A DNA stretch of 57,325 nucleotides from a virus. Location: the IMG/VR virus record IMGVR_UViG_3300031867_000069; one strand, given 5' to 3'. Both the position numbers and the translations under genes were made by a program. A model generated the notes under the pieces. That model was not told the origin of the DNA and ran no database searches. It worked only from the letters and a program-made list of their open reading frames with translations. This document shows positions 12,001-40,088 of this stretch, piece after piece (the first letter of the stretch is position 1; each line of letters opens with the position of its first letter).

Positions 12001-13452
12001 AAATCATCATTACTGGCGAAGGCGATGGATCCTAACGACACAACGGTTGGATATTTAAAAACTACCGAAACTTTAGAAATGACTACAAGTGACGTATATT
12101 TGAAAGATTTTCTAAATAAAAAAAATAACACCGAAAAAATAATTACAACTTGTGATATCAATTTGGAACCATTAACTAGTGGCTTTTTAGTATGGCACAT
12201 ACAATGGAATCCGAAATATCCTAACGATGAACATGAAATAATACCGGATCAATATAAAAATGACTACATTGTTATTGATTTGACAACTCCTGCTGGCGGT
12301 GGCAGCCGATATACATGGAATGCTATTAAACTAACTTTTAGGCCTTATCGTAGAAACTATGTAGTTATTACTTTTGAAGAATATGGTTCTAGACAATTAT
12401 ATTGCACATATCTCGACAGCTATTCTGCTATATCTGTAACTTTAAACGGCGGATTATGGATTAACAATTCCGGAGATATAAACGGTTTTACAGAAGGAAT
12501 TCCTCCTTTTGGAATTGGCTATAAAGACAGTGAACATCTGGAAATGGACTATAACGAAATATCTGCCAAGTCCGATAATGTTACACCAAGCCATTTATAT
12601 TTTAACATGGAAGGCGGAGGTGTAAGTGTTAACAATAACTGCGACAGAGCTGTCATGTTTAAAGATGGTGCTATATATGCCAAAAATAAATCGTTTAATG
12701 ACGGTGAGTGGATAGGAATAGTTGACGGTTTAAACGAAGCTGGCGATACGACTTTTGGTTATGGCGGATATTTAAATAATATAGGTTCCACCAATATTTA
12801 CGGAAAAGATATTAACCTTACATCAAAGGGCGATGTCGTAGCTAATACAAGTTTTATAGTTCCGAATGGTAGTAGTTTCCAAGGTAAAAACACATCGGGT
12901 CAATTACGTAATAATTTCCAACCATGCAATACTAATAACAGTTGTGTTATAGGTTATGGCAGCTATACGGCAAAAGAAGGAAACACTGGCTTATATGGTA
13001 ACAGTGTTGGCATTACTTCGCAATCCGATATTAGTATTGCCTATTCCGGTAACTTGAGAATAAACGGAACTCAATATGACTCTGGATGGATAACACCAAC
13101 ACTTGTATCAACCATGACTAATTATGGCTCGGACTCTACAAACGCAGTCAAGTATAGAAAAATAGGTAGCGTGGTTGATATTGCCGGAACAGTAAGTCCT
13201 AAAGCAACTACCACATTAGCAAATGGAGGAGCTGTAACTCTGTTCACGTTACCAGAAGCATATCGACCATCTTATACTAGATCTTTCTTATGCCAAGGTT
13301 CAGCTCGTTGCATATTTATGCTTCAGATAGAAAGTAACGGAGCAGTAACCATAAGTAGATATAGAAATAGCACAAGTACAACTGACGCTTATCCAACAAG
13401 TGTTTCTACCAATTCATGGCTTGCTATATCTGCAACTTTCTTTGTTGATTAA
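9058..13452 (+). CDS. Receptor-binding / host-specificity tail protein (1464 aa)
   Basis: SD AAGGAGG lies 9 nt before ATG 9058. The N-terminus (ATITISRIVDIQSVTRYYLLQSS..PSKPTTNPPGGNWVTVEP) is typical of Bacillota phage tail-tip proteins. It is the last large gene before the holin. Confidence 0.65.
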   Translation: MAVKAKATITISRIVDIQSVTRYYLLQSSTASTPSKPTTNPPGGNWVTVEPAFQNGSTNTLYSVELTVFSDDSFDYSDVSKSTSYEAAKEAWNKANNAQNTANSANAKISNLNIGGRNLIKHGQGDKQKGFFKSFSINGDGYLEASMTSKNTNATIKLDEAFVIKPRDYPVGETYIWSYDIMYTKWDFPEGSTCNALWMGQRYTNAPSGQTSTGQWTRITAHDLPKVGSNGCELNKWYHVEQLITIPVQASDNVGVGSQFEFYNQSTTVAASISMRFKNVKLEHGNIATDWTPAPEDLDELVTKLDVMKIGGENLLSNSKELPTDIYNIGGGSIDISTYKGFKVSTGVCNKDTRFTDILSYNGKISPKADTYYTLSFYAKASKNGFIMKSFFYPDCTVMINAPDGNSSGKFSNSGDGMSDNILTTEWKRYWVRWKTTSSVSGVKNILICRLQADVNHSTNDGVQVWVCAPRLEENTFNTNWAPNLMDIESEVTEQGAVMHVMKDSIELKADKTEVTKLGDDVKNLTSTTNSQFKQMSDSLTATVSSVNQIKSNYKLGVYHRANGDSTKNGCISFARITIKNAWCGTPISFGIISTTKQYYNINVRFKHANTTDPDLDYISCDGNVDVYAHKVGTSTWDILCSKDDGGKSDFVLVSDYIFNSSNTELLSNDTAQTKSIGVKWIDQHYDTPTEAQLNSKEYIKAEQLAGKMTKETITSEVKQTAEGLTVKLNKSYHDTSNYSQLNINTASSWNFNYDNTADGRWYTPKTMARDIPISDFYECLGGEKFKIEFEISTSVKGSSTYGGTDQVFVGTTVEIFGLDDTNKYNSYLAPTPIVSGQSTRIMGTDAATPVKVAGSITIPTKCRRFRVFIQTDGWGNWAGTLKIRNIVVSKINAVSDAASTAQSTANTARTEAANAAKTATNYLGFSSAGLTVGDLSKDTLGNNVNINSSSVDIRNGQKVLASYGSDTILYNNGLEVFSIKKSSLLAKAMDPNDTTVGYLKTTETLEMTTSDVYLKDFLNKKNNTEKIITTCDINLEPLTSGFLVWHIQWNPKYPNDEHEIIPDQYKNDYIVIDLTTPAGGGSRYTWNAIKLTFRPYRRNYVVITFEEYGSRQLYCTYLDSYSAISVTLNGGLWINNSGDINGFTEGIPPFGIGYKDSEHLEMDYNEISAKSDNVTPSHLYFNMEGGGVSVNNNCDRAVMFKDGAIYAKNKSFNDGEWIGIVDGLNEAGDTTFGYGGYLNNIGSTNIYGKDINLTSKGDVVANTSFIVPNGSSFQGKNTSGQLRNNFQPCNTNNSCVIGYGSYTAKEGNTGLYGNSVGITSQSDISIAYSGNLRINGTQYDSGWITPTLVSTMTNYGSDSTNAVKYRKIGSVVDIAGTVSPKATTTLANGGAVTLFTLPEAYRPSYTRSFLCQGSARCIFMLQIESNGAVTISRYRNSTSTTDAYPTSVSTNSWLAISATFFVD

Positions 13453-13468
13453 AAGGAGATGTTTATTT

Positions 13469-13690
13469 ATGAAAATGAATAATAAAGTTTATGATATTCT
13501 TAAATGGATTGCACAATATCTATTACCAGCTATTGGTACTTTATATTTTGCATTGGCAGGTATTTGGGGCCTTTCATACGGCGAACAGATCGTAGGTTCC
13601 ATTACCGCCATTGACACTTTCTTGGGCGTTATTCTAGGTTTAAGTTCAAGGAAGTATAACAAAACTGATAATTCATCAAAGGATATTTAG
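13469..13690 (+). CDS. Holin (phiLC3/LL-H-like, 73 aa)
   Basis: SD AAAAGGAG lies before ATG 13469. The sequence YDILKWIAQYLLPAIGTLYFALAGIWGL...ITAIDTFLGVILG gives two hydrophobic helices. It is the last gene before a strong terminator. Confidence 0.7.
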   Translation: MKMNNKVYDILKWIAQYLLPAIGTLYFALAGIWGLSYGEQIVGSITAIDTFLGVILGLSSRKYNKTDNSSKDI

Positions 13691-13738: not shown

Positions 13739-13780
13739 AAGAGGAGGTAGTCGTTTCGATTACTTCCTCTTTTATTTTTT
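13739..13780 (+). terminator. Rho-independent terminator ending the late region
   Basis: 15-bp stem (aagaggaggtagtcg / cgattacttcctctt, 2 G-U pairs), loop ttt, then a T-run. Confidence 0.8.
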
Positions 13781-13832
13781 ATACCGATTTTTATATCACG
13801 TTCTATTCTTGTTGATCTTTTATTAAATGATA

Positions 13833-13861
13833 TTCGCTAAAAAAACATGCCTCTTTATGAA
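13833..13861 (+). promoter_or_regulatory. Conserved promoter-like motif TTCGCT-N17-TATGAA
   Basis: Member of the 18-copy family. Intergenic, upstream of the SD and ATG 13880. Confidence 0.55.
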
Positions 13862-13879
13862 AAGAGAGGAGTGACATTT

Positions 13880-14020
13880 ATGTTTAATAAAATAAGATAT
13901 GCCTATCATTTAACAGCTTGTAAGAAAATTATGAAAAAATATAAGTATACTTATGAGCTGAATAAACGATTTATTTGGCATAGGAGACGGTTGAACAAAT
14001 TGATGCTTAATCTGAAATAA
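13880..14020 (+). CDS. Small basic protein (46 aa), below the ORF-track cutoff
   Basis: SD GAGAGGAG precedes the ATG. Product MFNKIRYAYHLTACKKIMKKYKYTYELNKRFIWHRRRLNKLMLNLK. Bounded by the motif upstream and a terminator downstream. Confidence 0.5.
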   Translation: MFNKIRYAYHLTACKKIMKKYKYTYELNKRFIWHRRRLNKLMLNLK

Positions 14021-14027
14021 AAAGATC

Positions 14028-14060
14028 GAGCTCTTTAACAAGGGCTCTTTCTTTTTTTTT
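14028..14060 (+). terminator. Cassette terminator (GAGCTCTT-TAAC-AAGGGCTC + T-run)
   Basis: 8-bp stem with one G-U pair, then T-run tttcttttttttt. Confidence 0.75.
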
Positions 14061-14129
14061 GTCGCATATTTTACAACTTATATGCTTCACAAGGAGAGGG
14101 AACACATACTGCACGCTCTTTTCTTTTTG

Positions 14130-14158
14130 TTCGCGTATTTTACAACTTATATTATGAA
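14130..14158 (+). promoter_or_regulatory. Promoter-like motif TTCGCG-N17-TATGAA
   Basis: ttcgcgtattttacaacttatattatgaa. Intergenic, upstream of gene 14198. Confidence 0.6.
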
Positions 14159-14197
14159 AAGAATCATTTTTTCAATATTTTAAAGGAGGTTTCTATT

Positions 14198-14395
14198 ATG
14201 AAAAAATACTTTAAAGATTATAAGGCTTTATGCAAACATTGCGGAAAATTTTATAAAGATCATTGGTTCGGAAGCTTAATGTTTACAACCATTGGTTTTG
14301 GATTATTAATCGCGCCGATTGCTATTAAGTCCATTAAAGATCACAAAGAATTTGAAAAAAAGAATCTTATAGTAAATGACGAAAAAGATGATTAA
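14198..14395 (+). CDS. Small membrane protein (65 aa)
   Basis: SD AAAGGAGG. Transmembrane (TM) segment WFGSLMFTTIGFGLLIAPIAI. Confidence 0.65.
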   Translation: MKKYFKDYKALCKHCGKFYKDHWFGSLMFTTIGFGLLIAPIAIKSIKDHKEFEKKNLIVNDEKDD

Positions 14396-14406
14396 TTCAA
14401 AAGATC

Positions 14407-14435
14407 GAGCTCTTTAACAAGGGCTCTTTCTTTTT
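14407..14435 (+). terminator. Cassette terminator (same sequence as 14028)
   Basis: gagctctt taac aagggctc tttcttttt. Confidence 0.75.
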
Positions 14436-14464
14436 GTCGCGTAAATTACAACTTATATTATGAA
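14436..14464 (+). promoter_or_regulatory. Promoter-like motif GTCGCG-N17-TATGAA
   Basis: gtcgcgtaaattacaacttatattatgaa, directly abutting the terminator. Confidence 0.6.
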
Positions 14465-14504
14465 AAGAATCATTTTTAAATAACTTTTAATGGAGGTATC
14501 TATA

Positions 14505-14729
14505 ATGAGTGAATTATTTTATAACTTTTGTAACTGGATTACTAAAATGATTACCGATATTCATAACACCAAAGACATGAATTTGTACGACCTTATTTAC
14601 TATTGTAATGTAGAAAATCAGGTCGAACATACAACAACTTTGGTACTATTGGTAATATTAGGAATCGTTGCTATTACAATAACATTCATCATGGTACATA
14701 AACTAATTGATGATTTTTCAAAAGATTGA
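14505..14729 (+). CDS. Small membrane protein (74 aa)
   Basis: SD TGGAGG lies before ATG 14505 (track ATG 14490 is inside the SD). TM segment LVLLVILGIVAITITFIMV. Confidence 0.6.
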   Translation: MSELFYNFCNWITKMITDIHNTKDMNLYDLIYYCNVENQVEHTTTLVLLVILGIVAITITFIMVHKLIDDFSKD

Positions 14730-14755
14730 GGCCTTAAACAAGGTCTCTTTCTTTT
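14728..14755 (+). terminator. Cassette terminator (GAGGCCTT-AAAC-AAGGTCTC)
   Basis: 8-bp stem with compensatory changes relative to 14028, then a T-run. It overlaps the stop codon. Confidence 0.75.
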
Positions 14756-14762
14756 GCTTTTG

Positions 14763-14791
14763 TACGCTTTAAAAACATATAATATTATGAA
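14763..14791 (+). promoter_or_regulatory. Promoter-like motif TACGCT-N17-TATGAA
   Basis: The TATGAA abuts SD AGGAGG. Confidence 0.5.
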
Positions 14792-14808
14792 AGGAGGCGA
14801 TTATATTT

Positions 14809-15099
14809 ATGAACATTGATTGGAATAAAAATATCGTTTTTAACCATGCAATAGCACTAGATAATGGAGTTGATGATATAAATCACAAACTTCTAACCTT
14901 TATAGATGATGTTATATGCTGGGGTAAAGCTTATAAATTAAAATTAATTGATTTTGAAGCGAGCTCACAGTATATAAATTTCGAATGGGAAGGAAAAAAA
15001 GAAGATGTATTTTTATTCTTCCGCCATTATAGTGTTAACTTAATAGGAAAAAATGATGATGAAACAATTAACACATTAAAATTAATAATAGCCAAATAA
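14809..15099 (+). CDS. Hypothetical protein (96 aa)
   Basis: SD AAAGGAGG. A terminator follows. Confidence 0.65.
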   Translation: MNIDWNKNIVFNHAIALDNGVDDINHKLLTFIDDVICWGKAYKLKLIDFEASSQYINFEWEGKKEDVFLFFRHYSVNLIGKNDDETINTLKLIIAK

Positions 15100-15104
15100 T
15101 GATT

Positions 15105-15133
15105 GAGGCCTTAAACAAGGTCTCTTTCTTTTT
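15105..15133 (+). terminator. Cassette terminator (GAGGCCTT-AAAC-AAGGTCTC)
   Basis: Same hairpin as 14728, then a T-run. Confidence 0.75.
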
Positions 15134-15160
15134 CGTTTATTTTACACGGTATATTATGAA
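15132..15160 (+). promoter_or_regulatory. Promoter-like motif TTCGTT-N17-TATGAA
   Basis: ttcgtttattttacacggtatattatgaa, abutting SD AGGAG. Confidence 0.5.
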
Positions 15161-15177
15161 AGGAGATGAATTATAAT

Positions 15178-15333
15178 ATGATTACTTTTACTATATTATT
15201 AATAGCACTATTAATAATCATTACAACTATAATAGTATTATTCTCATCAGGAACAATATTATTCATGTTTGTATTTTGCGATATAATAGTAGCAATAATA
15301 ATAATTGTTTTCATATGTAAAAAATTGTTCTAA
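15178..15333 (+). CDS. Very hydrophobic small membrane peptide (51 aa), below the ORF-track cutoff
   Basis: Product MITFTILLIALLIIITTIIVLFSSGTILFMFVFCDIIVAIIIIVFICKKLF. SD AAAGGAG. Confidence 0.55.
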   Translation: MITFTILLIALLIIITTIIVLFSSGTILFMFVFCDIIVAIIIIVFICKKLF

Positions 15334-15354
15334 AAGAAAAACAAATAAGAATTT

Positions 15355-15383
15355 GAGCTCTTTGACAAGGGCTCTTTCTTTTT
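15355..15383 (+). terminator. Cassette terminator (GAGCTCTT-TGAC-AAGGGCTC)
   Basis: Near-identical to 14028 and 14407. Confidence 0.75.
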
Positions 15384-15412
15384 GTCGCGTAAATTACAAC
15401 TTATATTATGAA
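15384..15412 (+). promoter_or_regulatory. Promoter-like motif GTCGCG-N17-TATGAA
   Basis: Identical to the 14436 copy. Confidence 0.6.
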
Positions 15413-15456
15413 GACTTTTGTTCTTAATACATAAAAAATAAAGGAGGATGAGATCA

Positions 15457-15705
15457 ATGAAATTATTCAACGATGCTCACGTATTTAACTTGGACGAGAA
15501 GAACGTATTACAGGTAGTTGACATTATCAACGATTCGTCAATGGATGAACTATATAATTTATCCATAAAACGATTAAATGATTCATCAACATACATGATT
15601 AAGTTCTTTACAAAAAAAGAAATATGGGATGACATATTAGCTGAATTAAACAATAATGGTTTTGAAATGATCATCAAACCGAATAACATTATGTGGTTAA
15701 GATAG
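15457..15705 (+). CDS. Hypothetical protein (82 aa)
   Basis: SD AAAGGAGG lies 9 nt before ATG 15457 (track ATG 15448 abuts the SD). Confidence 0.6.
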   Translation: MKLFNDAHVFNLDEKNVLQVVDIINDSSMDELYNLSIKRLNDSSTYMIKFFTKKEIWDDILAELNNNGFEMIIKPNNIMWLR

Positions 15706-15724
15706 GAGGATTAATAATTAGACT

Positions 15725-15752
15725 GAGACCTTAAACAAGGTCTCTTTCTTTT
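15725..15752 (+). terminator. Cassette terminator (GAGACCTT-AAAC-AAGGTCTC)
   Basis: Perfect 8-bp stem, then a T-run. Confidence 0.8.
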
Positions 15753-15779
15753 CGCTAAAATAACATGTTCCTTTATGGA
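15751..15779 (+). promoter_or_regulatory. Promoter-like motif TTCGCT-N17-TATGGA
   Basis: ttcgctaaaataacatgttcctttatgga (AACATGTTCC spacer subtype). Confidence 0.55.
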
Positions 15780-15801
15780 ATAATTAGAAAGGAGGTTTAC
15801 T

Positions 15802-15930
15802 ATGAATTTTATTAAAAATTGTTTGGTTTTAACAGCTAGCGCTGTTTCGGTAGCCATAGGCTATAAATTCGGCGAAGTTGTATGGGACCGAATTTTAAAA
15901 AATAAAATTGAAAATAAAATCAATTACTAA
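15802..15930 (+). CDS. Small membrane peptide (42 aa), below the ORF-track cutoff
   Basis: SD AAAGGAGG. Product MNFIKNCLVLTASAVSVAIGYKFGEVVWDRILKNKIENKINY. Confidence 0.55.
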   Translation: MNFIKNCLVLTASAVSVAIGYKFGEVVWDRILKNKIENKINY

Positions 15931-15943
15931 TTATTGAAACTGA

Positions 15944-15985
15944 AAGGGTTTAAGTTTAAATACTTAGACTCTTTCTTTTATTTTT
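15944..15985 (+). terminator. Rho-independent terminator
   Basis: 12-bp stem (aagggtttaagt / acttagactctt, 2 G-U pairs), then a T-run. Confidence 0.7.
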
Positions 15986-16166
15986 AATAGGCGCAATTAT
16001 AGGCACTATAATTACTACCATATTACATTTTTCACATAAAACATTTGGAGAATTGGATATCAATCACAATGGCGACGTTTGTCGATTAAAGTTAAATTCC
16101 AAAGAAATTTCGAAAAAGAATAAAAAGAAAGTTGCGCTTAAAATTATTCATATTTCGCATGAATAA
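15960..16166 (+). pseudogene. 5'-truncated remnant of a small membrane-protein gene
   Basis: The open frame (...LIGAIIGTIITTILHFSHKTFGELDINHNGDVCRLKLNSKEISKKNKKKVALKIIHISHE*) has no ATG and no SD. Its 5' end is overwritten by the terminator. Confidence 0.4.
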
Positions 16167-16182
16167 CATTTGCTATTATGGA
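16154..16182 (+). promoter_or_regulatory. Promoter-like motif TTCGCA-N17-TATGGA
   Basis: ttcgcatgaataacatttgctattatgga. It overlaps the 3' end of the remnant ORF. Confidence 0.5.
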
Positions 16183-16220
16183 ACCGAAAGGTTTTTAATA
16201 TTTTAAAGGAGGTTTTTATC

Positions 16221-16613
16221 ATGAGTATAAAGACACTATTAAACGCTGAAATTGAATCCGAGTTCAAAGAACTTGAAAAAACTCAGGTGGGCTCAGATGA
16301 GTACAAAGTATCTATCGATGGTATTAGTAAACTGATCGACAGATCTATCGAAATGTCAAAGCTCGAAGCTGATATTAAGGACAAAGAAGAGACTCGTGAA
16401 TTAGAGACTCAACTTGAACTTAAGAAACAGAAGGACGAGCATCGAAATAAAATGATAGCTAATGTCTTAACTGGTACTAGTATCATTTCTGGTATAGCTT
16501 TGACTGTTTGGGGCACTCTAAAGAGTTTGAAGTTTGAAGAAACCGGAACCATAACGACTTCGGCAGGTAGGAGTTTTATTAATGGGATTGTAAAATCTTT
16601 TACAAAACATTAA
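16221..16613 (+). CDS. Coiled-coil protein with C-terminal TM segment (130 aa)
   Basis: SD AAAGGAGG lies before ATG 16221. TM segment MIANVLTGTSIISGIALTVWGTL. Confidence 0.65.
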   Translation: MSIKTLLNAEIESEFKELEKTQVGSDEYKVSIDGISKLIDRSIEMSKLEADIKDKEETRELETQLELKKQKDEHRNKMIANVLTGTSIISGIALTVWGTLKSLKFEETGTITTSAGRSFINGIVKSFTKH

Positions 16614-16631
16614 ACAAAAAGGTTCAAGATT

Positions 16632-16665
16632 AGAGGTTATGTAAACTCATAGCCTCTTTTCTTTT
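16632..16665 (+). terminator. Rho-independent terminator
   Basis: 10-bp stem (agaggttatg / catagcctct, one G-U pair), then a T-run. Confidence 0.7.
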
Positions 16666-16695
16666 GCTAATAAACTCTTAAAGGAGACGAGACCG

Positions 16696-16827
16696 ATGAG
16701 ATCAGTAAAAAGATTTTTGAAACGTCAGTCTCCAACAGTAACAGTACGACAAATAATGTGGGCTTTAAAAATGAAGCCTATTAAAAAAGAAAAATGGGAA
16801 ACTTGTTTCGATAGGAGAGATATTTAA
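16696..16827 (+). CDS. Small basic protein (43 aa), below the ORF-track cutoff
   Basis: SD AAGGAGA. Product MRSVKRFLKRQSPTVTVRQIMWALKMKPIKKEKWETCFDRRDI. Confidence 0.45.
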   Translation: MRSVKRFLKRQSPTVTVRQIMWALKMKPIKKEKWETCFDRRDI

Positions 16828-16856
16828 TTCGCGCATTTTACAACTTGTATTATGAA
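16828..16856 (+). promoter_or_regulatory. Promoter-like motif TTCGCG-N17-TATGAA
   Basis: It starts immediately after the TAA stop. 34 nt (16825-16858) are identical to 18023-18056. Confidence 0.6.
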
Positions 16857-16892
16857 GATATTGGTTATTACCGAAAGGAGGATTGATTAGCT

Positions 16893-16958
16893 ATGCTCAT
16901 TGTTGGCCTAATATTGATAGCTATAGGATGTTTTCTAGTTGGTAAAGCATTATCTTAA
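16893..16958 (+). CDS. Tiny hydrophobic peptide (21 aa)
   Basis: SD AAAGGAGG. Product MLIVGLILIAIGCFLVGKALS. It has its own motif upstream and its own terminator. Confidence 0.4.
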   Translation: MLIVGLILIAIGCFLVGKALS

Positions 16959-16964
16959 CGAGTC

Positions 16965-16990
16965 AGGGGACCAAACCGGTCCTCTTACTT
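16965..16990 (+). terminator. Rho-independent terminator
   Basis: Stem aggggacc / ggtcctct, then a T-rich tail. Confidence 0.65.
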
Positions 16991-17019
16991 TTCGCGAATA
17001 TTGCATAGCATATTATGAA
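16991..17019 (+). promoter_or_regulatory. Promoter-like motif TTCGCG-N17-TATGAA
   Basis: ttcgcgaatattgcatagcatattatgaa, abutting SD AGGAGG. Confidence 0.6.
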
Positions 17020-17033
17020 AGGAGGAAGTTCTT

Positions 17034-17195
17034 ATGAACATTAAACTAGATGCAAGTAAACTTTTAGGTATTGGGACTATCGCTCTTGGGCTAGTATCAA
17101 CAATACTAGCCGGAGTGAAAGAAAACAACGACAAAAAAGTTTTAAAAAGCGAAATCACAGATGAAGTTCTTAAAAACTTAAAAACCAAAGAATAG
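17034..17195 (+). CDS. Small membrane protein (53 aa), below the ORF-track cutoff
   Basis: Product MNIKLDASKLLGIGTIALGLVSTILAGVKENNDKKVLKSEITDEVLKNLKTKE. Confidence 0.55.
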   Translation: MNIKLDASKLLGIGTIALGLVSTILAGVKENNDKKVLKSEITDEVLKNLKTKE

Positions 17196-17196
17196 G

Positions 17197-17225
17197 AGGG
17201 GATCAACAGATCCTCTTTTATTTTT
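17197..17225 (+). terminator. Rho-independent terminator
   Basis: Stem aggggatc / gatcctct, loop aaca, then a T-run. Confidence 0.7.
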
Positions 17226-17251
17226 GCTCATTATGAAAGGAGAAATTAAAA

Positions 17252-18025
17252 ATGAGTAAAATGAATTTATCAAGCATTGTTAAAAGCATGCGCCGTACAT
17301 TAAAAAAACACAGCCCTGAAATCCTTACTGGCATAGGTATTGCCGGTATGATTACGACCACAATATTGGCTGTTAAAGAAACGCCAAAAGCTGTTCGTTT
17401 GCTTGATGAAAGAAAAAACGAACTCGAAACTGAAAAATTGCCAGCGGTAGAAATCGTAAAAACTAGCTGGAAATGTTATATTCCAGCAGCTGTTACTTGT
17501 ACGCTATCTGCTGCTTGTTTGATTGGTGCGAGCTCCGTTAACTTAAAACGAAATGCTGCGCTAGCAACTGCTTATCAGCTTTCCGAAAAGGCTCTAACTA
17601 CTTATAAAGAAAAAGTAGTAGAAACTATCGGAGAGAAAAAAGAGCAAGTTATCAAAGATAAAGTGGCAGAGGAACATATGAAAGAAAATCCTAAGAGCCA
17701 TAACGAAGTTATTGTTACTGGCAATGGCGATGTGCTTTGCTACGATGCTTTCTCTGGACGATATTTTACATCTAGTAAAGCTAAAATTGATGATGCTGTT
17801 AATGCCATTAATAAAACAATGCTGGACGACTGGTGCGTAAGTCTGAATGACTTTTACGACGAGTTGAATCTGGATCATACTAAACTTGGCGATAGTATGG
17901 GATGGAATACTGATGGCGATTTGGTTAAAGTCTATTTTTCCAGCCAATTGACAGATGAAGGAAAGCCATGCTTGGTACTGGATTTCGATGTGGCGCCAAA
18001 CTATAACTATTACAGAATGAACTAA
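17252..18025 (+). CDS. Membrane-anchored protein, paralog of 19505..20446 (257 aa)
   Basis: The N-terminus LKKHSPEILTGIGIAGMITTTILAVKETPKA is shared with 19505 (LKKHSPEILVISGVVGTVAAGVMACKATTKA). SD AAAGGAG. Confidence 0.7.
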   Translation: MSKMNLSSIVKSMRRTLKKHSPEILTGIGIAGMITTTILAVKETPKAVRLLDERKNELETEKLPAVEIVKTSWKCYIPAAVTCTLSAACLIGASSVNLKRNAALATAYQLSEKALTTYKEKVVETIGEKKEQVIKDKVAEEHMKENPKSHNEVIVTGNGDVLCYDAFSGRYFTSSKAKIDDAVNAINKTMLDDWCVSLNDFYDELNLDHTKLGDSMGWNTDGDLVKVYFSSQLTDEGKPCLVLDFDVAPNYNYYRMN

Positions 18026-18054
18026 TTCGCGCATTTTACAACTTGTATTATGAA
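18026..18054 (+). promoter_or_regulatory. Promoter-like motif TTCGCG-N17-TATGAA
   Basis: Identical to the 16828 copy. The track ORF start 18050 is the ATG inside the motif. Confidence 0.6.
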
Positions 18055-18097
18055 GAACATTAATTGTTCGAAAATTATATTTACTGGAGGTACAAAA

Positions 18098-18352
18098 ATG
18101 GAAGAAGAAAAAATTGTTGAGATTGTAGACGAGGAAGAAACAGTGAAAACTGAAAATGATTCTAAGGCTTTGGTCACTAAGGCTAAAGACAAGTTTGTCA
18201 AGTACGGAAAGAAAGCTGGCGTTATCGCAGCTGGAATCGGTATTGGCGTTCTTGGATTTATTCTTGGATCAAAAACTAAAGATAATTCGGATGACTGTTA
18301 TGTCGAAACTACAGTCGCAGATGATTCTACCGAACACGATTCAGAAGAATAA
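18098..18352 (+). CDS. Small acidic membrane protein (84 aa)
   Basis: SD TGGAGG lies before ATG 18098. TM segment AGVIAAGIGIGVLGFILGS. Confidence 0.6.
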   Translation: MEEEKIVEIVDEEETVKTENDSKALVTKAKDKFVKYGKKAGVIAAGIGIGVLGFILGSKTKDNSDDCYVETTVADDSTEHDSEE

Positions 18353-18372
18353 TCGAAACAAATGTTCAAGGA

Positions 18373-18412
18373 GGGGGAATACCTGTAACAAGGTATTCTC
18401 TCTTTTGTTTTT
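18373..18412 (+). terminator. Rho-independent terminator ending the cassette array
   Basis: 12-bp stem (gggggaatacct / aggtattctctc, 2 G-U pairs), then ttttgttttt. Confidence 0.75.
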
Positions 18413-18426: not shown

Positions 18427-18627
18427 ATGGATAATCATGTGTATCATTATGAAGGACCTGTAATGCGTTATGGAACTTGCCTTTCTTCTAGGTGGTCGGC
18501 AAATACTATTGCTCCATCTAAAGCAAAAGCTAGGTCTAATTTTATGTATCAATATAAATCCTTAATTAATCTGTCTCCGACTGCAAAAATATATTTGCCT
18601 GGTGAGGTTGTATTAGTTAAAGATTAG
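18427..18627 (+). CDS. Hypothetical protein (66 aa)
   Basis: SD AGGAG lies 6 nt before ATG 18427 (track ATG 18421 abuts the SD). Confidence 0.55.
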   Translation: MDNHVYHYEGPVMRYGTCLSSRWSANTIAPSKAKARSNFMYQYKSLINLSPTAKIYLPGEVVLVKD

Positions 18628-19247: not shown

Positions 19248-19508
19248 ATGAAGATTGAAAAGCAGGATATGGTTAACCATCCTAGCCATTATATTTCCAA
19301 GACAGGTCTCGAAACTATCGATGTTATCGAGGCTTTTACTGATGCCCTTAAGGGTATTGAAGCTACAGACACAGGCAATATCATTAAGTATATTTGCCGT
19401 TGGAAAGGTAAGAATGGAGTCGAGGATTTAAAGAAAGCTCAATGGTACTTGAACCATCTTATCGAACATGTTGAAAAAACTACTAAAAAGGAGAATAAAT
19501 TATCATGA
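19248..19508 (+). CDS. DUF3310-like phage protein (86 aa)
   Basis: The pattern VNHPSHY...ETIDVIEAF...GNIIKYICRWKGKNG.EDLKKAQWYLNHLI matches the DUF3310 signature as I recall it. Confidence 0.6.
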   Translation: MKIEKQDMVNHPSHYISKTGLETIDVIEAFTDALKGIEATDTGNIIKYICRWKGKNGVEDLKKAQWYLNHLIEHVEKTTKKENKLS

Positions 19509-20446
19509 AAAAATTAAAAATCACAAAAAATGTAACTAGAGCTTTTGGTAAAGCTAAACTACAGCTAAAAAAGCATAGTCCAGAAATCTTGGTTATTTCT
19601 GGTGTTGTTGGCACAGTTGCAGCAGGTGTAATGGCTTGTAAAGCAACTACTAAGGCTTCTGATATTTTGGAAGAAATGCATGAATCTATGGATCAGATTC
19701 ATAAAGTAAATGAAATGGCGGAAGAAAATGAAAACATTTCTTATGATGAAAACGATCTTAAGAAAGACACAACTATGGTTTATGTTCAGACAGGCGTTAA
19801 GTTTGCTAAACTTTATGGTCCTTCTTTAGCCGTTGGTATTCTATCAATCACTAGCATTCTTGTTGGTCATAACATCCTTCGCAAGAGAAATCTAGCGTTA
19901 GCAGCTGCTTACACAACCGTTTCTAATAGCTTTAAAGCTTATAGAGATCGTGTTGTGGATCGTTTCGGTAAAGATCTAGATCGTGAATTACGTTATGATG
20001 TTAAAGCAAAAGAAGTAGAAGAAACTGTTGTTGATGAAAACGGCAATGAAACTACTGTTAAGAATACTGTGAATGTTATTGATCCTAACCAAGTAAGCGA
20101 CTTCGCTCGAATCTTTGACGATGGTAACATTGGATGGGAAAAAGATTCCGAACACAATCTGGCATTCCTTAAGATGCAACAGAATTACGCGAATGATATT
20201 CTACAAACCAGAGGATATCTGTTCCTGAATGAAGTTTATGACATGCTTGGCTTTAACAGAACTAAAGCTGGTCAAGTAGTTGGCTGGTATTATGACGAGA
20301 AAAATCCAACTGGTGATAACTTCGTTGACTTTGGTATTTATCGTGGTGAATCTCCAGCAGTTAGAGCATTTGTTAACGGTGACGAACGTAGCATCTTGCT
20401 AGACTTTAATGTTGATGGTGAAATTCTTAACAGAGTATATGAATAA
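19505..20446 (+). CDS. Membrane-anchored protein, paralog of 17252..18025 (313 aa)
   Basis: Shares the N-terminal TM module and the RNLALAAAYT / RNAALATAYQ segment with 17252. ATGA overlap with the upstream gene. Confidence 0.7.
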   Translation: MKKLKITKNVTRAFGKAKLQLKKHSPEILVISGVVGTVAAGVMACKATTKASDILEEMHESMDQIHKVNEMAEENENISYDENDLKKDTTMVYVQTGVKFAKLYGPSLAVGILSITSILVGHNILRKRNLALAAAYTTVSNSFKAYRDRVVDRFGKDLDRELRYDVKAKEVEETVVDENGNETTVKNTVNVIDPNQVSDFARIFDDGNIGWEKDSEHNLAFLKMQQNYANDILQTRGYLFLNEVYDMLGFNRTKAGQVVGWYYDEKNPTGDNFVDFGIYRGESPAVRAFVNGDERSILLDFNVDGEILNRVYE

Positions 20447-27353: not shown

Positions 27354-27551
27354 ATGAGCAAGCAATTAGTTTTAGCATGTGATTATTGCATACATAAAAG
27401 CGTATGCGGGAAAAAACATCTTTTTGAAGGTGCACAGAAAGATCTTGAACAATTTAATGTTCTAAAGATTATTAATGATAAAGATTGGATTACAGTCCAA
27501 CCTTTAAAATGTTCATATTATTTAGGTTACAGTGATATCAGTGATGAGTAA
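27354..27551 (+). CDS. Cys-containing small protein (65 aa)
   Basis: ATG 27354 lies after GAGG. Contains CDYCIHKSVCG. Confidence 0.5.
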   Translation: MSKQLVLACDYCIHKSVCGKKHLFEGAQKDLEQFNVLKIINDKDWITVQPLKCSYYLGYSDISDE

Positions 27552-28770
27552 AGATTTTTTATATAGCTATCAAAAAAAGGCTGTTGATCAAATGAAAAAC
27601 GGCTGCATACTTAATGGCGGGGTCGGTTCTGGTAAATCTAGGACTGGCCTTTACTATTATTTCAAAGAACAAGGTGGATCTATTGATTCTAAATATATAG
27701 AGATGAAGAATCCTAAAGATCTTTATATCATCACGACTGCTATGAAAAGAGATAGCTTAGAATGGGAAGGCGAATTGGCTAATTTCTTATTGACTACTAA
27801 TAAGGACGAAGCCATTTACCATAATCATACTGTTGTAATCGATAGTTGGAATAATATTAAGAAGTATGCTGATATTAAGAATTCATTCTTTATATTTGAC
27901 GAGGATAGGGTCACAGGCAAAGGTGTTTGGGTTAAATCTTTTCTTAAGATAGCAAAATCTAATGATTGGATTATATTATCAGCAACCCCAGGAGACACAT
28001 GGGAACAATATATTCCTGTGTTTATTGCGAACGGATTTTACAAAAACAAAACGGAATTCCTTAGGGAACACGTTATCTTTTGTAGATATACAAAATTCCC
28101 TAAAATCGACAGATATATTAATACAGGAAGACTCATTCGTCTACGTAATAAGATATTAGTCGATATGGATTTTACCAGAAATACTATAGCACATCATGAA
28201 GATGTGTATGTCAGGTATGATATTTCGAAGTACAAGGATGCCATCAGAACTAGATGGAATCCGTTTAAAGATGAACCAATACGACAAGCATCGGATCTAT
28301 GCTATGTTTTAAGAAGAATTGTAAACAGCGATGAGTCTAGACAAATTGCTTTGCTTGAGTTATTTGAAAAACATCCTAGAATGATTGTTTTCTATAACTT
28401 TGATTACGAGCTTGATATTTTAAAAGGATTGTATTATGGAGAAAACGTTGATGTTGCGGAGTGGAATGGACATGCTCATAATCCTATACCAACTTCTAAA
28501 CAATGGGTATATCTTGTGCAATATACTGCCGGATGCGAAGGATGGAATTGCATCAAAACAGACACTATTGTCTTCTACTCTCAAAACTATTCCTATAAGG
28601 TTATGGCGCAAGCCTCCGGGCGTATTGACCGTCTCAATACTCCGTTCAGGGATTTATATTATTACCATATTAAATCTAGAAGTGGAATTGACTTGGCCAT
28701 CAGTAAAGCATTATCAAACAAAAAGAAGTTTAATGAAAGAAGATGGTATGATAAATTTGCAAATGATTGA
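27544..28770 (+). CDS. SF2 (DEAD/SNF2-like) helicase (408 aa)
   Basis: Motif I is LNGGVGSGKSRT, motif II is FFIFDEDRV and motif III is ILSATPG. ATG 27544 overlaps the upstream stop by 8 nt. Confidence 0.75.
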   Translation: MSKDFLYSYQKKAVDQMKNGCILNGGVGSGKSRTGLYYYFKEQGGSIDSKYIEMKNPKDLYIITTAMKRDSLEWEGELANFLLTTNKDEAIYHNHTVVIDSWNNIKKYADIKNSFFIFDEDRVTGKGVWVKSFLKIAKSNDWIILSATPGDTWEQYIPVFIANGFYKNKTEFLREHVIFCRYTKFPKIDRYINTGRLIRLRNKILVDMDFTRNTIAHHEDVYVRYDISKYKDAIRTRWNPFKDEPIRQASDLCYVLRRIVNSDESRQIALLELFEKHPRMIVFYNFDYELDILKGLYYGENVDVAEWNGHAHNPIPTSKQWVYLVQYTAGCEGWNCIKTDTIVFYSQNYSYKVMAQASGRIDRLNTPFRDLYYYHIKSRSGIDLAISKALSNKKKFNERRWYDKFAND

Positions 28771-29139: not shown

Positions 29140-29160
29140 AATGAATCGATTCCAAATTTA

Positions 29161-30003: not shown

Positions 30004-30041
30004 AAGGTGTCTGAAACATGGCACCTTATTCTTTTATTTTT
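30004..30041 (+). terminator. Rho-independent terminator
   Basis: 8-bp stem (aaggtgtc / ggcacctt), then attcttttattttt. Confidence 0.65.
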
Positions 30042-37253: not shown

Positions 37254-40088
37254 ATGAACAATATCATAAAAGATATGGATGAACATGTGCTAATGCATTA
37301 CGGAATGCCTAAACGTTCTGGACGATATCCTTGGGGAAGTGGTGATAATCCATATCAGCGTACAGGCGATTTTATGGGTAGAGTTGACGAGCTAAGAAAA
37401 CAGAATTTTACTTATACTGATGAAAAAGGAAAAGTTTGGACAGGCGATACTGCTATTGCCAAATCTATGGGTTTGTCAACAACTCAATTTAGAACCGAAT
37501 ATTCTATTGCTAAAAACGAACGTAGACTCTATCAAGTAAATACTGCTAAAGCGTTGCAGAAAGATGGACTCGGTGCTACAGAAATCGGTAGAAAAATGGG
37601 TATACCAGAATCATCAGTTAGATCCTTATTGAATGCAAAATCCGAAACAAAAATGAATCAGGCTAAAGAAACAGCTAAATTCATAAAAGAGCAGATTGAT
37701 AAAAAAGGAATGATTGATGTTGGTACTGGTGTTGAAAGAGAACTAAACATATCTAAGGAAAAACTTAATCAGGCCTTATATTTACTCGAAAGAGAAGGCT
37801 ATCCTATATATAAAGGCGGCATTCCCCAAGTAACAAACATAGGTAATCAAACAAATCAAAAGATTATTTGTAAACCTGGTACAGAACATAAAGAAATTTA
37901 TGATTTTGACAAGGTTCATGCTCTTAATGAGGATAACTATATTTCTAGAGATGACGGTAAAACTTTCGAAAAGAAATTCCATTATCCAGAAAGTATGGAT
38001 TCAAAACGTCTTATGATTAGATACAAAGAGGACGGCGGCATCGATAAAGATGGTGTTGCAGAAATTAGACCAGGTGTTGACGATCTTTCACTTGGCGAAT
38101 CTCGATATTCTCAGGTTCGTATAATGGTTGATGGTAAAAAATACATAAAAGGTATGGCTGTATATGGCGATCCTAAAGATTTTCCTAAAGGTGTTGACGT
38201 TATATTTAACACTAACAAATCAAAGTCTGTATCTAAACTAGATGTTCTTAAAGATATTAAGAGCGATCCAGATAATCCATTTGGTTCTTTAATTAAAGAC
38301 GCTACACAAGGCGGTCAATATTGGTATACGGATTCTAAGACCGGAAAGAAGAAGCTTGGACTTATTAATAAGACAAGAGAAGAAGGCGATTGGGATGATT
38401 GGAAAGATGCTCTGCCTTCACAGTTCTTAGCTAAGCAGCCTATACAAATGATTAAGAAACAATTAAAGTTAGCAGTTGCTGATAAGGAAGCAGAATATGC
38501 TGATATTATGTCTATTAATAATCCTACTATTAAGAAATATTATCTTAATAAGTTTGCGGATGAATGTGATTCGACGGCTGTACATTTAAAAGCAGCCGCA
38601 TTACCAGGACAAAAGTATCACGTTATTATTCCTAATAATACGCTTAAAGAGAATGAAGTGTATGCGCCGGGCTATGCTTCAGGCACAAAGCTTGCTTTAA
38701 TAAGATATCCACATGGTGGAACATTTGAGATTCCTATATGTACAGTAAACAATAAGAATGCATTAGGTAAAAAACTTATAGGTACAACTCCTATAGATGC
38801 TGTATGTATTAATTCTAGAGTTGCTGAAAGATTATCAGGAGCGGATTTTGATGGCGATACGGTTATGTGCATTCCAACCCATGATCGTCAAGGAAAAGTT
38901 AAGATTACTTCTACTCCTCCTTTGAAAGGTCTAGAAGGTTTTGACCCAAAGATGGCCTATCCAGAACGTCCAGGTATGCAGTATATGAAAAATCCTAAGA
39001 CTGGAAGTGATAGCACTCCAGTGCAAATGGGAATGATTTCGAATCTTATAACCGATATGACTTTACTTGGCGCTACCTCTGATGAATTGGCTGCTGCCGT
39101 ACGTCACAGTATGGTAGTTATTGATGCTGGTAAGCACAAGCTGGACTATAAGCAGAGCGAGATAGATAACAACATAGCCGCTCTAAAGAAAAAGTATCAA
39201 GTGGGTGGCGCTTCTACTTTAATGTCTAGGGCTAAAGGTGAGTATGATGTACCCAAAAGGCAGGGTAATCCCCGTGTCAATTTAAAGGGCAAAACATATT
39301 ATGACCCTACCCGTCCCGAGGGAGCCCTAGTATATAAGACGGCAGACGACGCCAAATGGATACAAACAAAAGTCAATAAACGTACTGGAGAAGTAAAAAA
39401 AGTTGAGAGGATTCGTACTCAGAAGAGTACCAATATGGCAGAGACGGATGACGCATATACCCTAGTGTCTAAATTTAACACCCCTAAGGAGAGAGCCTAT
39501 GCCGACTATGCCAATAAAATGAAATCAATGGCTAACCAGGCCCGTATAGAAGCATCTAATTCGGGCAAAATAGCCTATTCAAGATTGGCAAAAGCAGAAT
39601 ATCAAAAAGAAGTAGATTCTTTGAATGCAAAATTAAACAAAGCTTTACTTAATTCTCCTAGAGAACGTCAAGCTCAACGTATGTCTAACGCTGAAATGAA
39701 TATAAAAAAGAGAGCCTATTATGATGAAACGGGCGCAAAGATGAAAACTAAGGATATAAAGAAAGCCAGTCAGCAAGCAATATCAAAGTATCGTGATGAA
39801 GTAGGCTCTGTATCTAGAAGAAACCGTTCTATTACTATAGATGATAGAGAATGGGAAGCTATTCAAAAGGGTGCAATAAGCGAAAGCGTGCTTAATAAGA
39901 TACTGAATAATAGTGATCCTGACAAACTAAGAGAAAGAGCAACACCTAAAACTTCTAAAGGTTTAAACACTGCTAAAGTAAACAGAATCAAAGCTTTGTC
40001 TGCTTCTAATTACACATTAGAACAAATCGCTAACAAACTTGGTATTTCAACTTCAACAGTTGCTAAGTATTTGAAAGGAGGAAATTAA
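37254..40088 (+). CDS. YonO / RdRP-like two-barrel single-subunit RNA polymerase candidate with flanking HTH domains (944 aa)
   Basis: The core motifs are ALIRYPHGGTFEIP (R484), then LSGADFDGDTVMCIPTHD (D531-D535, nt 38844-38858), then GMISNLITD...AAAVRHSMVVIDAGKHKLDYK. The HTH segments are GATEIGRKMGIPESSVRSLL near the N-terminus and YTLEQIANKLGISTSTVAKYLKGG at the C-terminus. Confidence 0.6.
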   Translation: MNNIIKDMDEHVLMHYGMPKRSGRYPWGSGDNPYQRTGDFMGRVDELRKQNFTYTDEKGKVWTGDTAIAKSMGLSTTQFRTEYSIAKNERRLYQVNTAKALQKDGLGATEIGRKMGIPESSVRSLLNAKSETKMNQAKETAKFIKEQIDKKGMIDVGTGVERELNISKEKLNQALYLLEREGYPIYKGGIPQVTNIGNQTNQKIICKPGTEHKEIYDFDKVHALNEDNYISRDDGKTFEKKFHYPESMDSKRLMIRYKEDGGIDKDGVAEIRPGVDDLSLGESRYSQVRIMVDGKKYIKGMAVYGDPKDFPKGVDVIFNTNKSKSVSKLDVLKDIKSDPDNPFGSLIKDATQGGQYWYTDSKTGKKKLGLINKTREEGDWDDWKDALPSQFLAKQPIQMIKKQLKLAVADKEAEYADIMSINNPTIKKYYLNKFADECDSTAVHLKAAALPGQKYHVIIPNNTLKENEVYAPGYASGTKLALIRYPHGGTFEIPICTVNNKNALGKKLIGTTPIDAVCINSRVAERLSGADFDGDTVMCIPTHDRQGKVKITSTPPLKGLEGFDPKMAYPERPGMQYMKNPKTGSDSTPVQMGMISNLITDMTLLGATSDELAAAVRHSMVVIDAGKHKLDYKQSEIDNNIAALKKKYQVGGASTLMSRAKGEYDVPKRQGNPRVNLKGKTYYDPTRPEGALVYKTADDAKWIQTKVNKRTGEVKKVERIRTQKSTNMAETDDAYTLVSKFNTPKERAYADYANKMKSMANQARIEASNSGKIAYSRLAKAEYQKEVDSLNAKLNKALLNSPRERQAQRMSNAEMNIKKRAYYDETGAKMKTKDIKKASQQAISKYRDEVGSVSRRNRSITIDDREWEAIQKGAISESVLNKILNNSDPDKLRERATPKTSKGLNTAKVNRIKALSASNYTLEQIANKLGISTSTVAKYLKGGN

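Follow-up and report, generated by a model that had tools for sequence, protein, structure and literature searches.

The closest described counterparts of the locus analyzed here are the promoter early stem-loop elements (PeSLs) of T4-type myoviruses (Arbiol et al., 2010, PMC2839356; Comeau et al., 2014, PMC4122927), small composite terminator/promoter modules recurring among the non-essential ORFans of a hyperplastic early region, where recombination between the copies explains the indels and replacements that distinguish close relatives. Among actinophages, the Arthrobacter phages of cluster AU have a 32-bp boundary repeat around genes 37–41, the only place of deletions and translocations (bioRxiv 10.1101/2020.01.10.891226), and the Gordonia phage Vardy of cluster DJ carries a 50-bp intergenic motif with a TATAAT sequence, accompanied by predicted terminators and transmembrane genes, for which a role in expression has been proposed (PMC9671010). 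The sequence in question is the IMG/VR virus record IMGVR_UViG_3300031867_000069, 57,325 nt long (the window; coordinates refer to it unless a relative is named). Its region at 13.7–18.6 kb is a series of monocistronic cassettes, in which a promoter-like motif and a Shine-Dalgarno (SD) sequence are followed by a small and often membrane-like ORFan and an intrinsic-terminator hairpin with a T-tail. At the terminator–motif modules which separate them, cassettes have been inserted, deleted, replaced and translocated across five close relatives, and the paralogous module copies homogenize. The best overall explanation, which we hold with fairly good confidence, is that terminator–promoter cassettes are shuffled at the modules and that the motif is read by a phage-encoded RNA polymerase.

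The modules resemble the PeSLs both in their composite build and position and in that recombination between copies explains the differences of close relatives. The array is the early, hyperplastic part of the genome, rich in small ORFans, and a stem-loop terminator is fused there to a putative early promoter within one small module. The analogy to PeSL cassettes drawn in the initial annotation is therefore apt in the functional sense of composite modules mediating shuffling, but the elements do not belong to the PeSL family: they are carried by an unrelated 57-kb siphophage lineage and not by a T4-type myovirus, and they share no sequence similarity with the PeSLs. The order of the parts also differs, the terminator preceding the promoter with only its T-tail in between. 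A strong sigma-70-like early promoter of the PeSL type was not found; instead, the motif is conserved in phages whose hosts belong to two bacterial phyla and which have a phage-encoded polymerase in common. Finally, promoter and terminator activities and mini-circles have been shown experimentally for the PeSLs, while the present modules are known from sequence alone.

The motif has the form TT-CGCG-N6-ACA-N7-TTATGAAA, spanning 28 nt with its three boxes approximately 10 bp apart. A search of the window for CGC-N8-CA-N7-TTAYGRAA with up to two mismatches gave 23 matches against 4.2 ± 2.1 expected, and a position weight matrix (PWM) built from 19 of the plus-strand matches and scanned over the whole window returned the same 19 sites only, all on the plus strand between 13835 and 36318, compared to 0–1 in shuffled sequence. 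Eleven copies are located in the array and eight more follow up to 36318, while the PWM scan detected none in the 34 kb of late genes. The consensus, TT CGCG AAAA WW ACA N4 CTW TTATG AAA, represents an orientation-specific, lineage-conserved signal and not a local repeat. Apart from the complete copies, the half-motif TTATGAAAGGAG without the upstream half occurs at 17228 and 31858. Besides its 11 motif copies, the array comprises ~15 open reading frames (ORFs) of 21–257 aa and ~12 hairpins of the intrinsic-terminator type, with SD-preceded gene starts at 13880, 14198, 14505, 14809, 15166/15178, 15457, 15802, 16221, 16696, 16893, 17034, 17252, 18098 and 18427. It had initially been described as about 14 mini-genes ending at 18.4 kb, nearly each with its own motif, SD and terminator. 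The small genes are there and most of them fit this description, but the genes at 16696–16827 and 18427–18627 have no motif and the one at 17252–18025 only half of it, three of the units are an empty cassette with a decayed motif (14047–14131), a pseudogene (15976–16150) and a fusion ORF (16696–16827), and the motif and further terminator–motif modules run on to 36.3 kb.

Terminator-like sites were strongly overrepresented at 12–31 kb (29 versus 7.2 ± 2.4 in shuffles). Six of the hairpins form one family, GAGNNCTTWRACAAGGNCTC plus TTTCTTTT, with the members GAGCTCTTTAACAAGGGCTC (14028 and 14407), GAGGCCTTAAACAAGGTCTC (14728 and 15105), GAGCTCTTTGACAAGGGCTC (15355) and GAGACCTTAAACAAGGTCTC (15725), and a related hairpin is present at 29159–29184. 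The compensatory or G-U stem changes noted initially were recovered in the alignment, in which the fourth stem pair is C-G, G-T or A-T, both sides changing, and the fifth is T-G or C-G; as GC-containing hairpins with a U-tract and compensatory change these structures are predicted to be intrinsic terminators. Orthologous hairpins are kept in two close relatives, loci L125 and L126. The hairpins do abut the motif directly, as had been claimed: the gap consists of the T-tail only, 7–17 nt, and seven array motifs have such an upstream hairpin, while across the family of related loci a terminator hairpin ends 5–20 nt upstream of 201 out of 589 motifs. The near identity ascribed to the boundary blocks at 14020–14088, 14397–14470 and 15350–15412 applies to their cores, since the 58-nt terminator-plus-motif segments 15355–15412 and 14407–14464 differ in one base out of 58 although the flanking genes are unrelated, but the three blocks over their full lengths are only 74–81% identical. 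The 34-nt repeat at 16825 and 18023 proved exact on comparison.

Further terminators were located at 31823–31852, 32137–32164 and 32425–32454. The window-type loop pattern CTT[TA][AG]ACAAGG had no matches in distant relatives; a looser comparison of these relatives recovered related GAGTCCTAACAAGGGCTC hairpins. A second family of repeated terminators was observed at 31813–31861 and 32415–32463 (49 nt, 90% identical, GAGAGGCTCAGCAATAACGCTGGGTCTTTTCTCTTTTAT), and these two copies bracket small replication-region genes, forming a second small PeSL-like patch.

Five relatives (L124/L125, L126, L250, L251 and L252) were retrieved from the protein database with the 257-aa array protein, the identities in this protein ranging from 70% to 95% (95%, 80%, 73%, 71% and 70%); source runs of the L124/L126/L250 clade include SRR14160750, ERZ27271064 and SRR31022628. 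A search of IMG/VR for related loci with the DUF6353 protein confirmed none. When the window was aligned to these contigs, as the initial annotation had proposed, the breakpoints coincided with the boundary modules: homology blocks end at 13779, 15979, 16150, 16665–16667, 16824–16828, 16861 and 16989–16992, each in a motif or a terminator tail. Counting the distinct breakpoints of L125 and L126 only, 6/7 lie within 5 nt of modules that make up ~20% of the region (binomial P ~7e-4). With indels, replacements and identity jumps in the motifs or T-tails of all five relatives, the suggestion that the modules serve as substrates for cassette shuffling is supported, one junction being intragenic.

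The homology with L125 stops at the late terminator (13779), beyond which L125 encodes a serine recombinase and a repressor in opposite orientation, and resumes at 16150, next to the motif 16156, while the homology with L126 starts at 15979, just past the terminator 15942–15975. L125, L250, L251 and L252 all resume at 16989–16991, at the TTCGCG of the motif 16993. In L125 a GC-rich segment without an ORF, flanked by the same two motifs, takes the place of the 21-aa cassette (window 16862–16990), and in L251 the 323 nt corresponding to 16666–16988 are missing together with this cassette, the junction ...CCTCTTTTCTTTT|TCGCGAA... joining a terminator tail to a motif. L250 is 97–100% identical to the window from 15726 to ~16205 and only 58–68% from the start of the 16221 gene, with the identity switch (~16206) falling into the putative promoter and the leader of this gene. 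The window motif at 16828–16861 aligns with two copies in L126 (9217–9249 and 9578–9611) bracketing an extra 86-aa cassette and is chimeric, its left flank matching the first L126 copy and its right flank the second; such a chimeric copy, against two direct copies in the relative, is the product expected of direct-repeat recombination. Altogether, the stretch between the 130-aa and the 257-aa genes has six different gene complements in six genomes. The gene 31871–32149 is bracketed by a terminator and a half-motif on one side and a terminator and a motif on the other, and its homologs are found in the early arrays of the loci L106, L108 and L090, likewise between GAGGGTCCTAACAAGGGCTC-type terminators and motifs. 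Over 34 nt there is no difference between the window motifs 16830 and 18028; their L126 orthologs at 9580 and 10789 are also identical to each other but differ from the window pair at six positions; paralogs identical within a genome and orthologs different between genomes point to concerted evolution.

Two of these differences have features of their own. The serine recombinase and the helix-turn-helix (HTH) repressor of L125 (1955–4194, Logan SRR14160760) form an insertion located precisely where the late terminator and the first cassette meet (window 13780–13830); the window has no such module, while its 257-aa array protein is 95% identical to that of L125, and this looks like a temperate/virulent difference made at the same junction. 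The ORF-less GC-rich segment of ~140 nt in the cassette slot of L125 (9313–9450) gave only a sub-threshold match to the adenosylcobalamin (AdoCbl) riboswitch (20 bits versus a gathering score of 50, E = 0.18).

The motif extends far beyond the close relatives. An IMG/VR scan with the exact pattern TTCGCG-N6-ACA-N7-TTATGAAA recovered at least 118 related gut-virus loci, and homologs of the early/replication proteins of the window (40–80% identity) were found in 101 out of the 119 loci listed. Within 965 kb of these at least 118 loci the PWM detected 579 sites, confined to one strand in 117/117 loci with matches; the median spacing was 474 nt and 55 loci had at least four motifs in 2.5 kb. Positions C1-G2-C3, C12, A23-T24 and G25 are at least 95% conserved in this gut family. 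The geometry CGC-N7-ACA-N9-ATGA, on the coding strand only, is common to the window, its gut relatives and three actinophages: Streptomyces phage RosaAsantewaa with six copies of tCGCAAGATCTACAnggnnTWAAATGAGAcccc, Arthrobacter phage Makai with at least seven copies and Arthrobacter phage Giantsbane with nine plus-strand copies at 27.8–31.5 kb against 0.24 expected. Lactococcus phage 1706 lacks the exact window motif, and de novo repeat finding revealed there 11 copies of a variant, yCACAtGTTTTACAtayaCTATAGTAGAAAGAAGG, with the layout CACA-N6-ACA-N4-CTATAGTAGAAAG. Both the actinophage and the 1706 copies are located in a small-gene array just past the tail/lysis genes, often right behind a hairpin with a T-run. 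In Giantsbane, three copies were observed within 300 nt at 30.0–30.3 kb (L129 2245–2538) with no annotated gene between them, i.e., empty cassettes like the one at 14047–14131 of the window.

These phages belong to a defined supercluster whose signature gene encodes an HTH-bearing polymerase-like protein (bioRxiv 10.1101/842583) and for which a central cluster of small membrane-protein genes is a recognized trait (PMC13313380). The window has the same characters, i.e., an array of small genes, often for membrane proteins, located between the tail/lysis and the replication genes, an HTH-bearing YonO-like polymerase and a 1300-aa primase-polymerase, and a YonO-like single-chain RNA polymerase with HTH domains is encoded by all of the motif-bearing phages mentioned above. 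At 40–50% protein identity unconstrained intergenic DNA would be randomized, and the three boxes must therefore be read by something conserved across two host phyla. Genome contigs gave mostly single chance matches to the motif, at least three on one strand being found in 11 out of the 120 loci listed; where titles were displayed, these 11 were Clostridia metagenome-assembled genomes (Christensenellaceae, Oscillospiraceae, Ruminococcus) or an unclassified bin.

The candidate reader is the YonO-like single-chain RNA polymerase of the window, a 944-aa protein with N- and C-terminal HTH domains encoded at 37254..40088 on the plus strand (phrog_4291, 1197 bits). It has Sigma70_r4/HTH Pfam matches at residues 909–942, and the sequence SGADFDGD at residues 528–535 is invariant in the alignment; loops of this type are the metal-binding loops of multisubunit RNA polymerases. 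PDB sequence and profile searches with the polymerase matched only the HTH domains at both ends. YonO itself is a processive DNA-dependent RNA polymerase with a mapped start site, whose promoter consensus is not known (PMC5467207), and no description of a promoter for the YonO-like family was found in the searchable literature. Co-occurrence and geometry connect the motif with this polymerase, and we give about even chances to the motif being its own promoter. The more specific proposal, in which the HTH-fused YonO-like polymerases recognize the motif as their cognate promoter, conserved since before the supercluster split between Firmicutes and Actinobacteria hosts, is held with a little less than even confidence.

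According to the proposed mechanism, the HTH domains of the polymerase would read the duplex boxes one helical turn apart and transcription would start inside TTATGAAA, approximately at G25, giving leaders 5'-GAAAGGAGG..., in a T7-like layout where the binding boxes lie upstream, positions -4..-1 are AT-rich and +1 is a purine. From ~19 promoters, the polymerase would transcribe the early and middle genes, and each hairpin would end its transcript, so that the small genes are expressed singly; after joining of the cos ends, read-through from the 36318 promoter may also transcribe the late operon. A 40–70-nt module recurring every 250–400 nt would let homologous recombination or gene conversion move whole ready-to-express cassettes, either within a genome or between co-infecting relatives, like the T4-type PeSLs.

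The location of the junctions would also be accounted for if the modules were alike only through selection on promoter and terminator function and recombination were illegitimate, with intergenic junctions as the sole survivors. The intergenic DNA of the array is almost all module, and viable junctions would tend to be found there under any mechanism; function keeps the core boxes conserved across the family; and the breakpoint at 16737 is an intragenic deletion which fused two genes into a 43-aa ORF. All this counts against homologous shuffling, but selection alone does not account for the extra L126 cassette flanked by directly repeated motifs, of which the window retains one chimeric copy, for the L251 junction within a shared CTTTT|TCGCG microhomology, for non-consensus positions that are identical in paralogs and different in orthologs (16830/18028 versus 9580/10789 of L126) or for the single-base difference between the 58-nt cores at 14407 and 15355 despite unrelated neighbors. 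Moreover, similarity of terminator hairpins is ~10 times commoner within a locus than between loci. Homologous exchange specifically is indicated by the direct repeats, the chimeric motif and the concerted evolution, and an origin by illegitimate recombination and selection only is considered unlikely. As to the signals themselves, the array might instead be one polycistronic RNA with hairpin and motif acting as RNA-processing or 3'-stabilizing signals, like the RNase III sites of the T7 early genes. They are indeed strictly strand-specific and intercistronic, and TTATGAAAGGAG stands without the upstream half at the two sites given above, but the hairpins have canonical T-tails, the motif shows neither conserved secondary structure nor covariation and has no Rfam family match, and the spacing of the boxes by about one helical turn suggests recognition of duplex DNA, which leaves this option very improbable.

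More serious competition to the phage polymerase comes from the host. With the same cassettes, the motif could be a host sigma-A-type early promoter, the YonO-like polymerase serving only the late operon, and a phage factor might bind the CGCG and ACA boxes like MotA at T4 middle promoters. Two sequence classes of the motif bear on this question, with A (TATTATG, class A) or T (YTTTATG) at position 20. The ratio of class A to T is 40:10 before array genes and 12:12 in the replication region, whereas all eight sites before the polymerase operon in the relatives are of class T (Fisher p = 0.014). For a host promoter speak the TATTAT of class A and its enrichment in the array, the perfect TATAAT of the actinophage copies, and the Vardy motif published as containing a sigma-70 -10 element (PMC9671010). 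Early genes, furthermore, require a polymerase already present in the cell, and the polymerase operon itself lies behind a motif (36318; L001:19088 in Faecalibacterium phage FP_oengus); the phage-polymerase model thus needs a time-zero polymerase, which would be injected together with the DNA or expressed from a host-type promoter, and in the phage 1706 record the polymerase is not labeled as structural. Terminators of the hairpin-plus-U type are host-polymerase signals, and the late region has almost none on the plus strand while host-type intrinsic terminators are numerous in the early region. The only characterized relative, YonO, serves a single long late operon and not many early units (PMC5467207). 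To these points against transcription by the phage enzyme it must be added that promoter, start site and termination are all inferred from the nucleotide sequence. On the other side, with the -10 set at positions 19–24 (TWTTAT), only 46% of the gut-family PWM sites have A at the would-be -11 position and 43% have T, including all eight upstream of the polymerase operon; the motif sites have neither a -35 consensus nor a TG/extended -10; and sigma-70-like sites are not enriched (78 versus 83 expected). Among 482 sites the SD core starts at positions 28–31 in about a quarter, with a peak of 63 at position 28 and a hard lower bound at ~27, which places the transcription start at or before ~27, whereas a sigma-70 -10 at 19–24 predicts 30–32 and would cut off the SD abutting position 28 (~26% of sites). 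Nor does a host sigma factor explain why the CGC and ACA boxes are kept between Actinobacteria and Firmicutes phages at 40–50% protein identity. A geometry that does not fit sigma-70 agrees with the initial annotation, which had assigned the motif to a promoter type different from that of the PeSLs, and we regard a host sigma-A-type promoter as possible but doubtful. The two classes may be temporal, and they offer a possible reconciliation of the evidence for the phage and the host polymerases. A pairing of the motif spacer with the downstream SD in read-through RNA was considered as well and dropped, the signal being marginal (-3.64 versus -3.43 ± 0.09 in permutations).

Several known systems share parts of this arrangement. 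The AU repeat is homologous to the motif (CGC-N7-ACA-N9-ATGA), has the same genome position and also flanks single small genes, but it reads TATAATGAGA where the window has TTATGAAA with an abutting SD, and in the AU preprint it figures solely as a recombination sequence, with no promoter, terminator or RNA polymerase mentioned. Vardy, judging from the published description, belongs to the same supercluster and its motif recurs in a central array of small transmembrane genes; it was read as a host sigma-70 promoter, with neither a recombination role nor a link to a phage polymerase proposed. Neither of the two reports connects the motif with the phage polymerase, with conservation across phyla or with a fused terminator. 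The inferred layout further resembles T7-class promoters in being contiguous over ~28 bp, with upstream specificity boxes and an AT-rich segment before the purine start, and in the many nearly identical copies that share one orientation; CACTATAG is even present in the 1706 variant. The polymerase, however, is unrelated to T7 RNA polymerase and is of the same two-barrel class as YonO, from which the present system differs in that YonO has one late promoter and was not reported with HTH domains (PMC5467207).

The PeSL principle is thus not confined to T4-like phages: in abundant gut siphophages a regulatory module doubles as a recombination joint, with junctions that can be mapped to the base and visible concerted evolution of paralogous promoter-like copies. 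The more interesting, although unproven, lead is that an orphan class of single-chain RNA polymerases has its promoter code in this motif, which provides a candidate promoter for the YonO-like enzymes with a consensus, a predicted +1 and two sequence classes, and culturable motif-bearing relatives exist (Lactococcus phage 1706 and Arthrobacter, Gordonia and Streptomyces phages). If true, PeSL-like shuffling would operate on a phage-private transcription code, making cassettes exchangeable among phages of very different hosts. In practical terms, dozens of tiny ORFs, the smallest of 21 aa, that gene callers tend to overlook receive exact boundaries and starts from the motif and the terminators (GAGNCCTTAAACAAGGNCTC hairpins), which also mark the ORFan cargo in thousands of uncultured gut phage contigs.

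The individual units of the array, all on the plus strand, begin with motif copy 1 (13835..13862; class B, CTTTATG) upstream of a 46-aa gene (13880–14020) whose homolog in the distant locus L090 is likewise flanked by a motif and a terminator. Direct reading and the repeat families identified an empty cassette at 14028..14131, consisting of a terminator (14028–14047), a degenerate motif (14061–14088), an SD-like AAGGAGAGG and a remnant T-tail; it is probably a deletion scar. Cassette 2 (14132..14426; motif 14132–14159, terminator 14407–14426) carries a membrane-like 65-aa gene at 14198–14395 with 57% aa identity to L125 6145–6327, while the 74-aa gene 14505–14729 of cassette 3 (14438..14747; motif 14438–14465, terminator 14728–14747) has no homolog in any relative compared. 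Next are cassette 4 (14765..15124) with an SD abutting its motif (14765–14792), a 96-aa ORFan (14809–15099) and the terminator 15105–15124, and cassette 5 (15134..15374) with the motif 15134–15161, a hydrophobic protein of 51–55 aa (15166/15178–15333) and the terminator 15355–15374. The 82-aa gene 15457–15705 of cassette 6 (15386..15744; motif 15386–15413, terminator 15725–15744) shows 45–50% aa identity to L125 6442–6705 and L126 7497–7772, and cassette 7 (15753..15975; class B motif 15753–15780, 42-aa gene 15802–15930, terminator 15942–15975) has 97–100% DNA identity to L250 1–250.

It is followed by the pseudogene remnant of a 69-aa gene (15976..16150), lacking a motif, an SD and a proper start codon, of which 16023–16145 is matched by L126 7821–8030 at 44% identity (tblastn). 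The next unit, 16156..16657, comprises the motif 16156–16183, the conserved 130-aa gene 16221–16613 (phrog_15866; 88–90% aa identity in L125 and L126) and the terminator 16632–16657. The 43-aa ORF at 16696..16827, without a motif, is an in-frame fusion. Compared with L125 and L126, an intragenic deletion of 0.5–1 kb has joined ~15 N-terminal residues matching those of a DUF6353 paralog to 31 residues that match the C-terminal end of a conserved 89–119-aa protein (blastp to L125 7823–8554 and 8560–8919; blastn blocks end at 16737 and restart at 16731/16740). This 31-aa tail is 75–87% conserved in almost all relatives. Cassette 11 (16830..16985) combines the motif 16830–16857, situated in the 34-nt exact repeat, with a hydrophobic 21-aa gene product (16893–16958) and the terminator 16965–16985, and cassette 12 (16993..17217) has the motif 16993–17020 with an abutting SD, a 53-aa gene (17034–17195) and a terminator-like hairpin at 17196–17217. 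The 257-aa DUF6353 protein (17252..18025; PF19880, E 8e-83), a paralog of 19505–20446, is preceded only by the half-motif. Cassette 14 (18028..18406) contains the second copy of the 34-nt repeat in its motif (18028–18055), an 84-aa gene (18098–18352) and the terminator 18369–18406, and the motif-less gene 18427–18627 comes last. Four cassettes are unique to the window. No function could be assigned to the array proteins from Pfam or PHROG; the ORFan cargo probably represents host-takeover or anti-defence genes.

Beyond the array, plus-strand motif copies are positioned at 26353, 28777, 29716, 31172 (weak, within an ORF), 31610, 32194, 32531 and 36318, the last one upstream of the nuclease/RNA polymerase operon. 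The motif 32531 is followed by ~140 nt without SD or ORF and then by a terminator-like T-run (32531–32700), which could be a small non-coding transcription unit, although the candidate RNA 32555–32700 did not fold better than shuffles (z = -1.25) and had no Rfam match. Two 47-nt tandem repeats (36184–36277) are located just upstream of the 36318 motif, and phage 1706 has a different triple repeat (CTATCACGAAAAAACTTCGGGAAAACTTCGGGATTG) and no motif upstream of its polymerase gene (L123 2634–3083); both sets of repeats may be regulator sites or a replication origin. A degenerate motif at 40641–40668 (aGCGATAAAAACATATTTGTTTGTGTGT), with the upstream boxes kept, precedes the SD of the first late gene by 30 nt and could be a late promoter variant or a chance match; in RosaAsantewaa, CGCGGGGCCTACA precedes the first gene (L121 1–110).

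The window, with a G+C content of 35% and all real genes on the plus strand, is the complete genome of a 57-kb Oengus/1706-like gut siphophage, in which the display cut falls within the tape-measure gene that runs off both ends. It is syntenic with FP_oengus, whose gene order is the same, and with 1706-like siphophages: tail genes in FP_oengus-like order at 1–13.7 kb, a primase-polymerase of the 1300-aa type at 21892–25842, a helicase at 27532–28770, and the terminase, portal and capsid genes after the polymerase-like gene 37254–40088, all on the plus strand. A GC-rich segment at 40.40–40.47 kb (40380–40470; GGGGGGGTGTCGAAAATTACACCCCCTCCCCACATCGCCGCCCTCC|TCGAAAATTCCCCGGGGG) aligns to both genome ends, right and left, of Lactococcus phage 1706 and of Streptomyces phage RosaAsantewaa and is probably the cos site, which places the start of the linear genome near 40.45 kb. 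The late operon accordingly runs from 40.7 through 57.3/1 to 13.7 kb and ends with a Dp-1-type holin (13400..13690, plus strand; PF16938, E 1.2e-29; 82–83% aa identity to the L125 and L126 holins) and a strong predicted terminator at 13739..13781 on the same strand, with a 15-bp stem followed by a T-run, directly after which the array begins. With Rfam, no match in the array at E <= 1 exceeded chance expectation and none in the whole window reached the gathering score, no tRNAs were found in the window, and megablast of 13.0–19.5 kb against 50,697 phage records produced no match.

Two further repeats were observed outside the array. The ORF 30018–30932 (304 aa) contains at 30144–30809 ~37 tandem copies of an 18-nt unit, implying a protein made mostly of 6-residue repeats. 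In the late region, a 70-nt repeat (93% identical) at 42374–42443 and 44862–44931 lies in the ORFs flanking the terminase gene and gives both of them one N-terminal peptide (DELYHHGIKGMKWGVRR...), while FP_oengus has one matching site.

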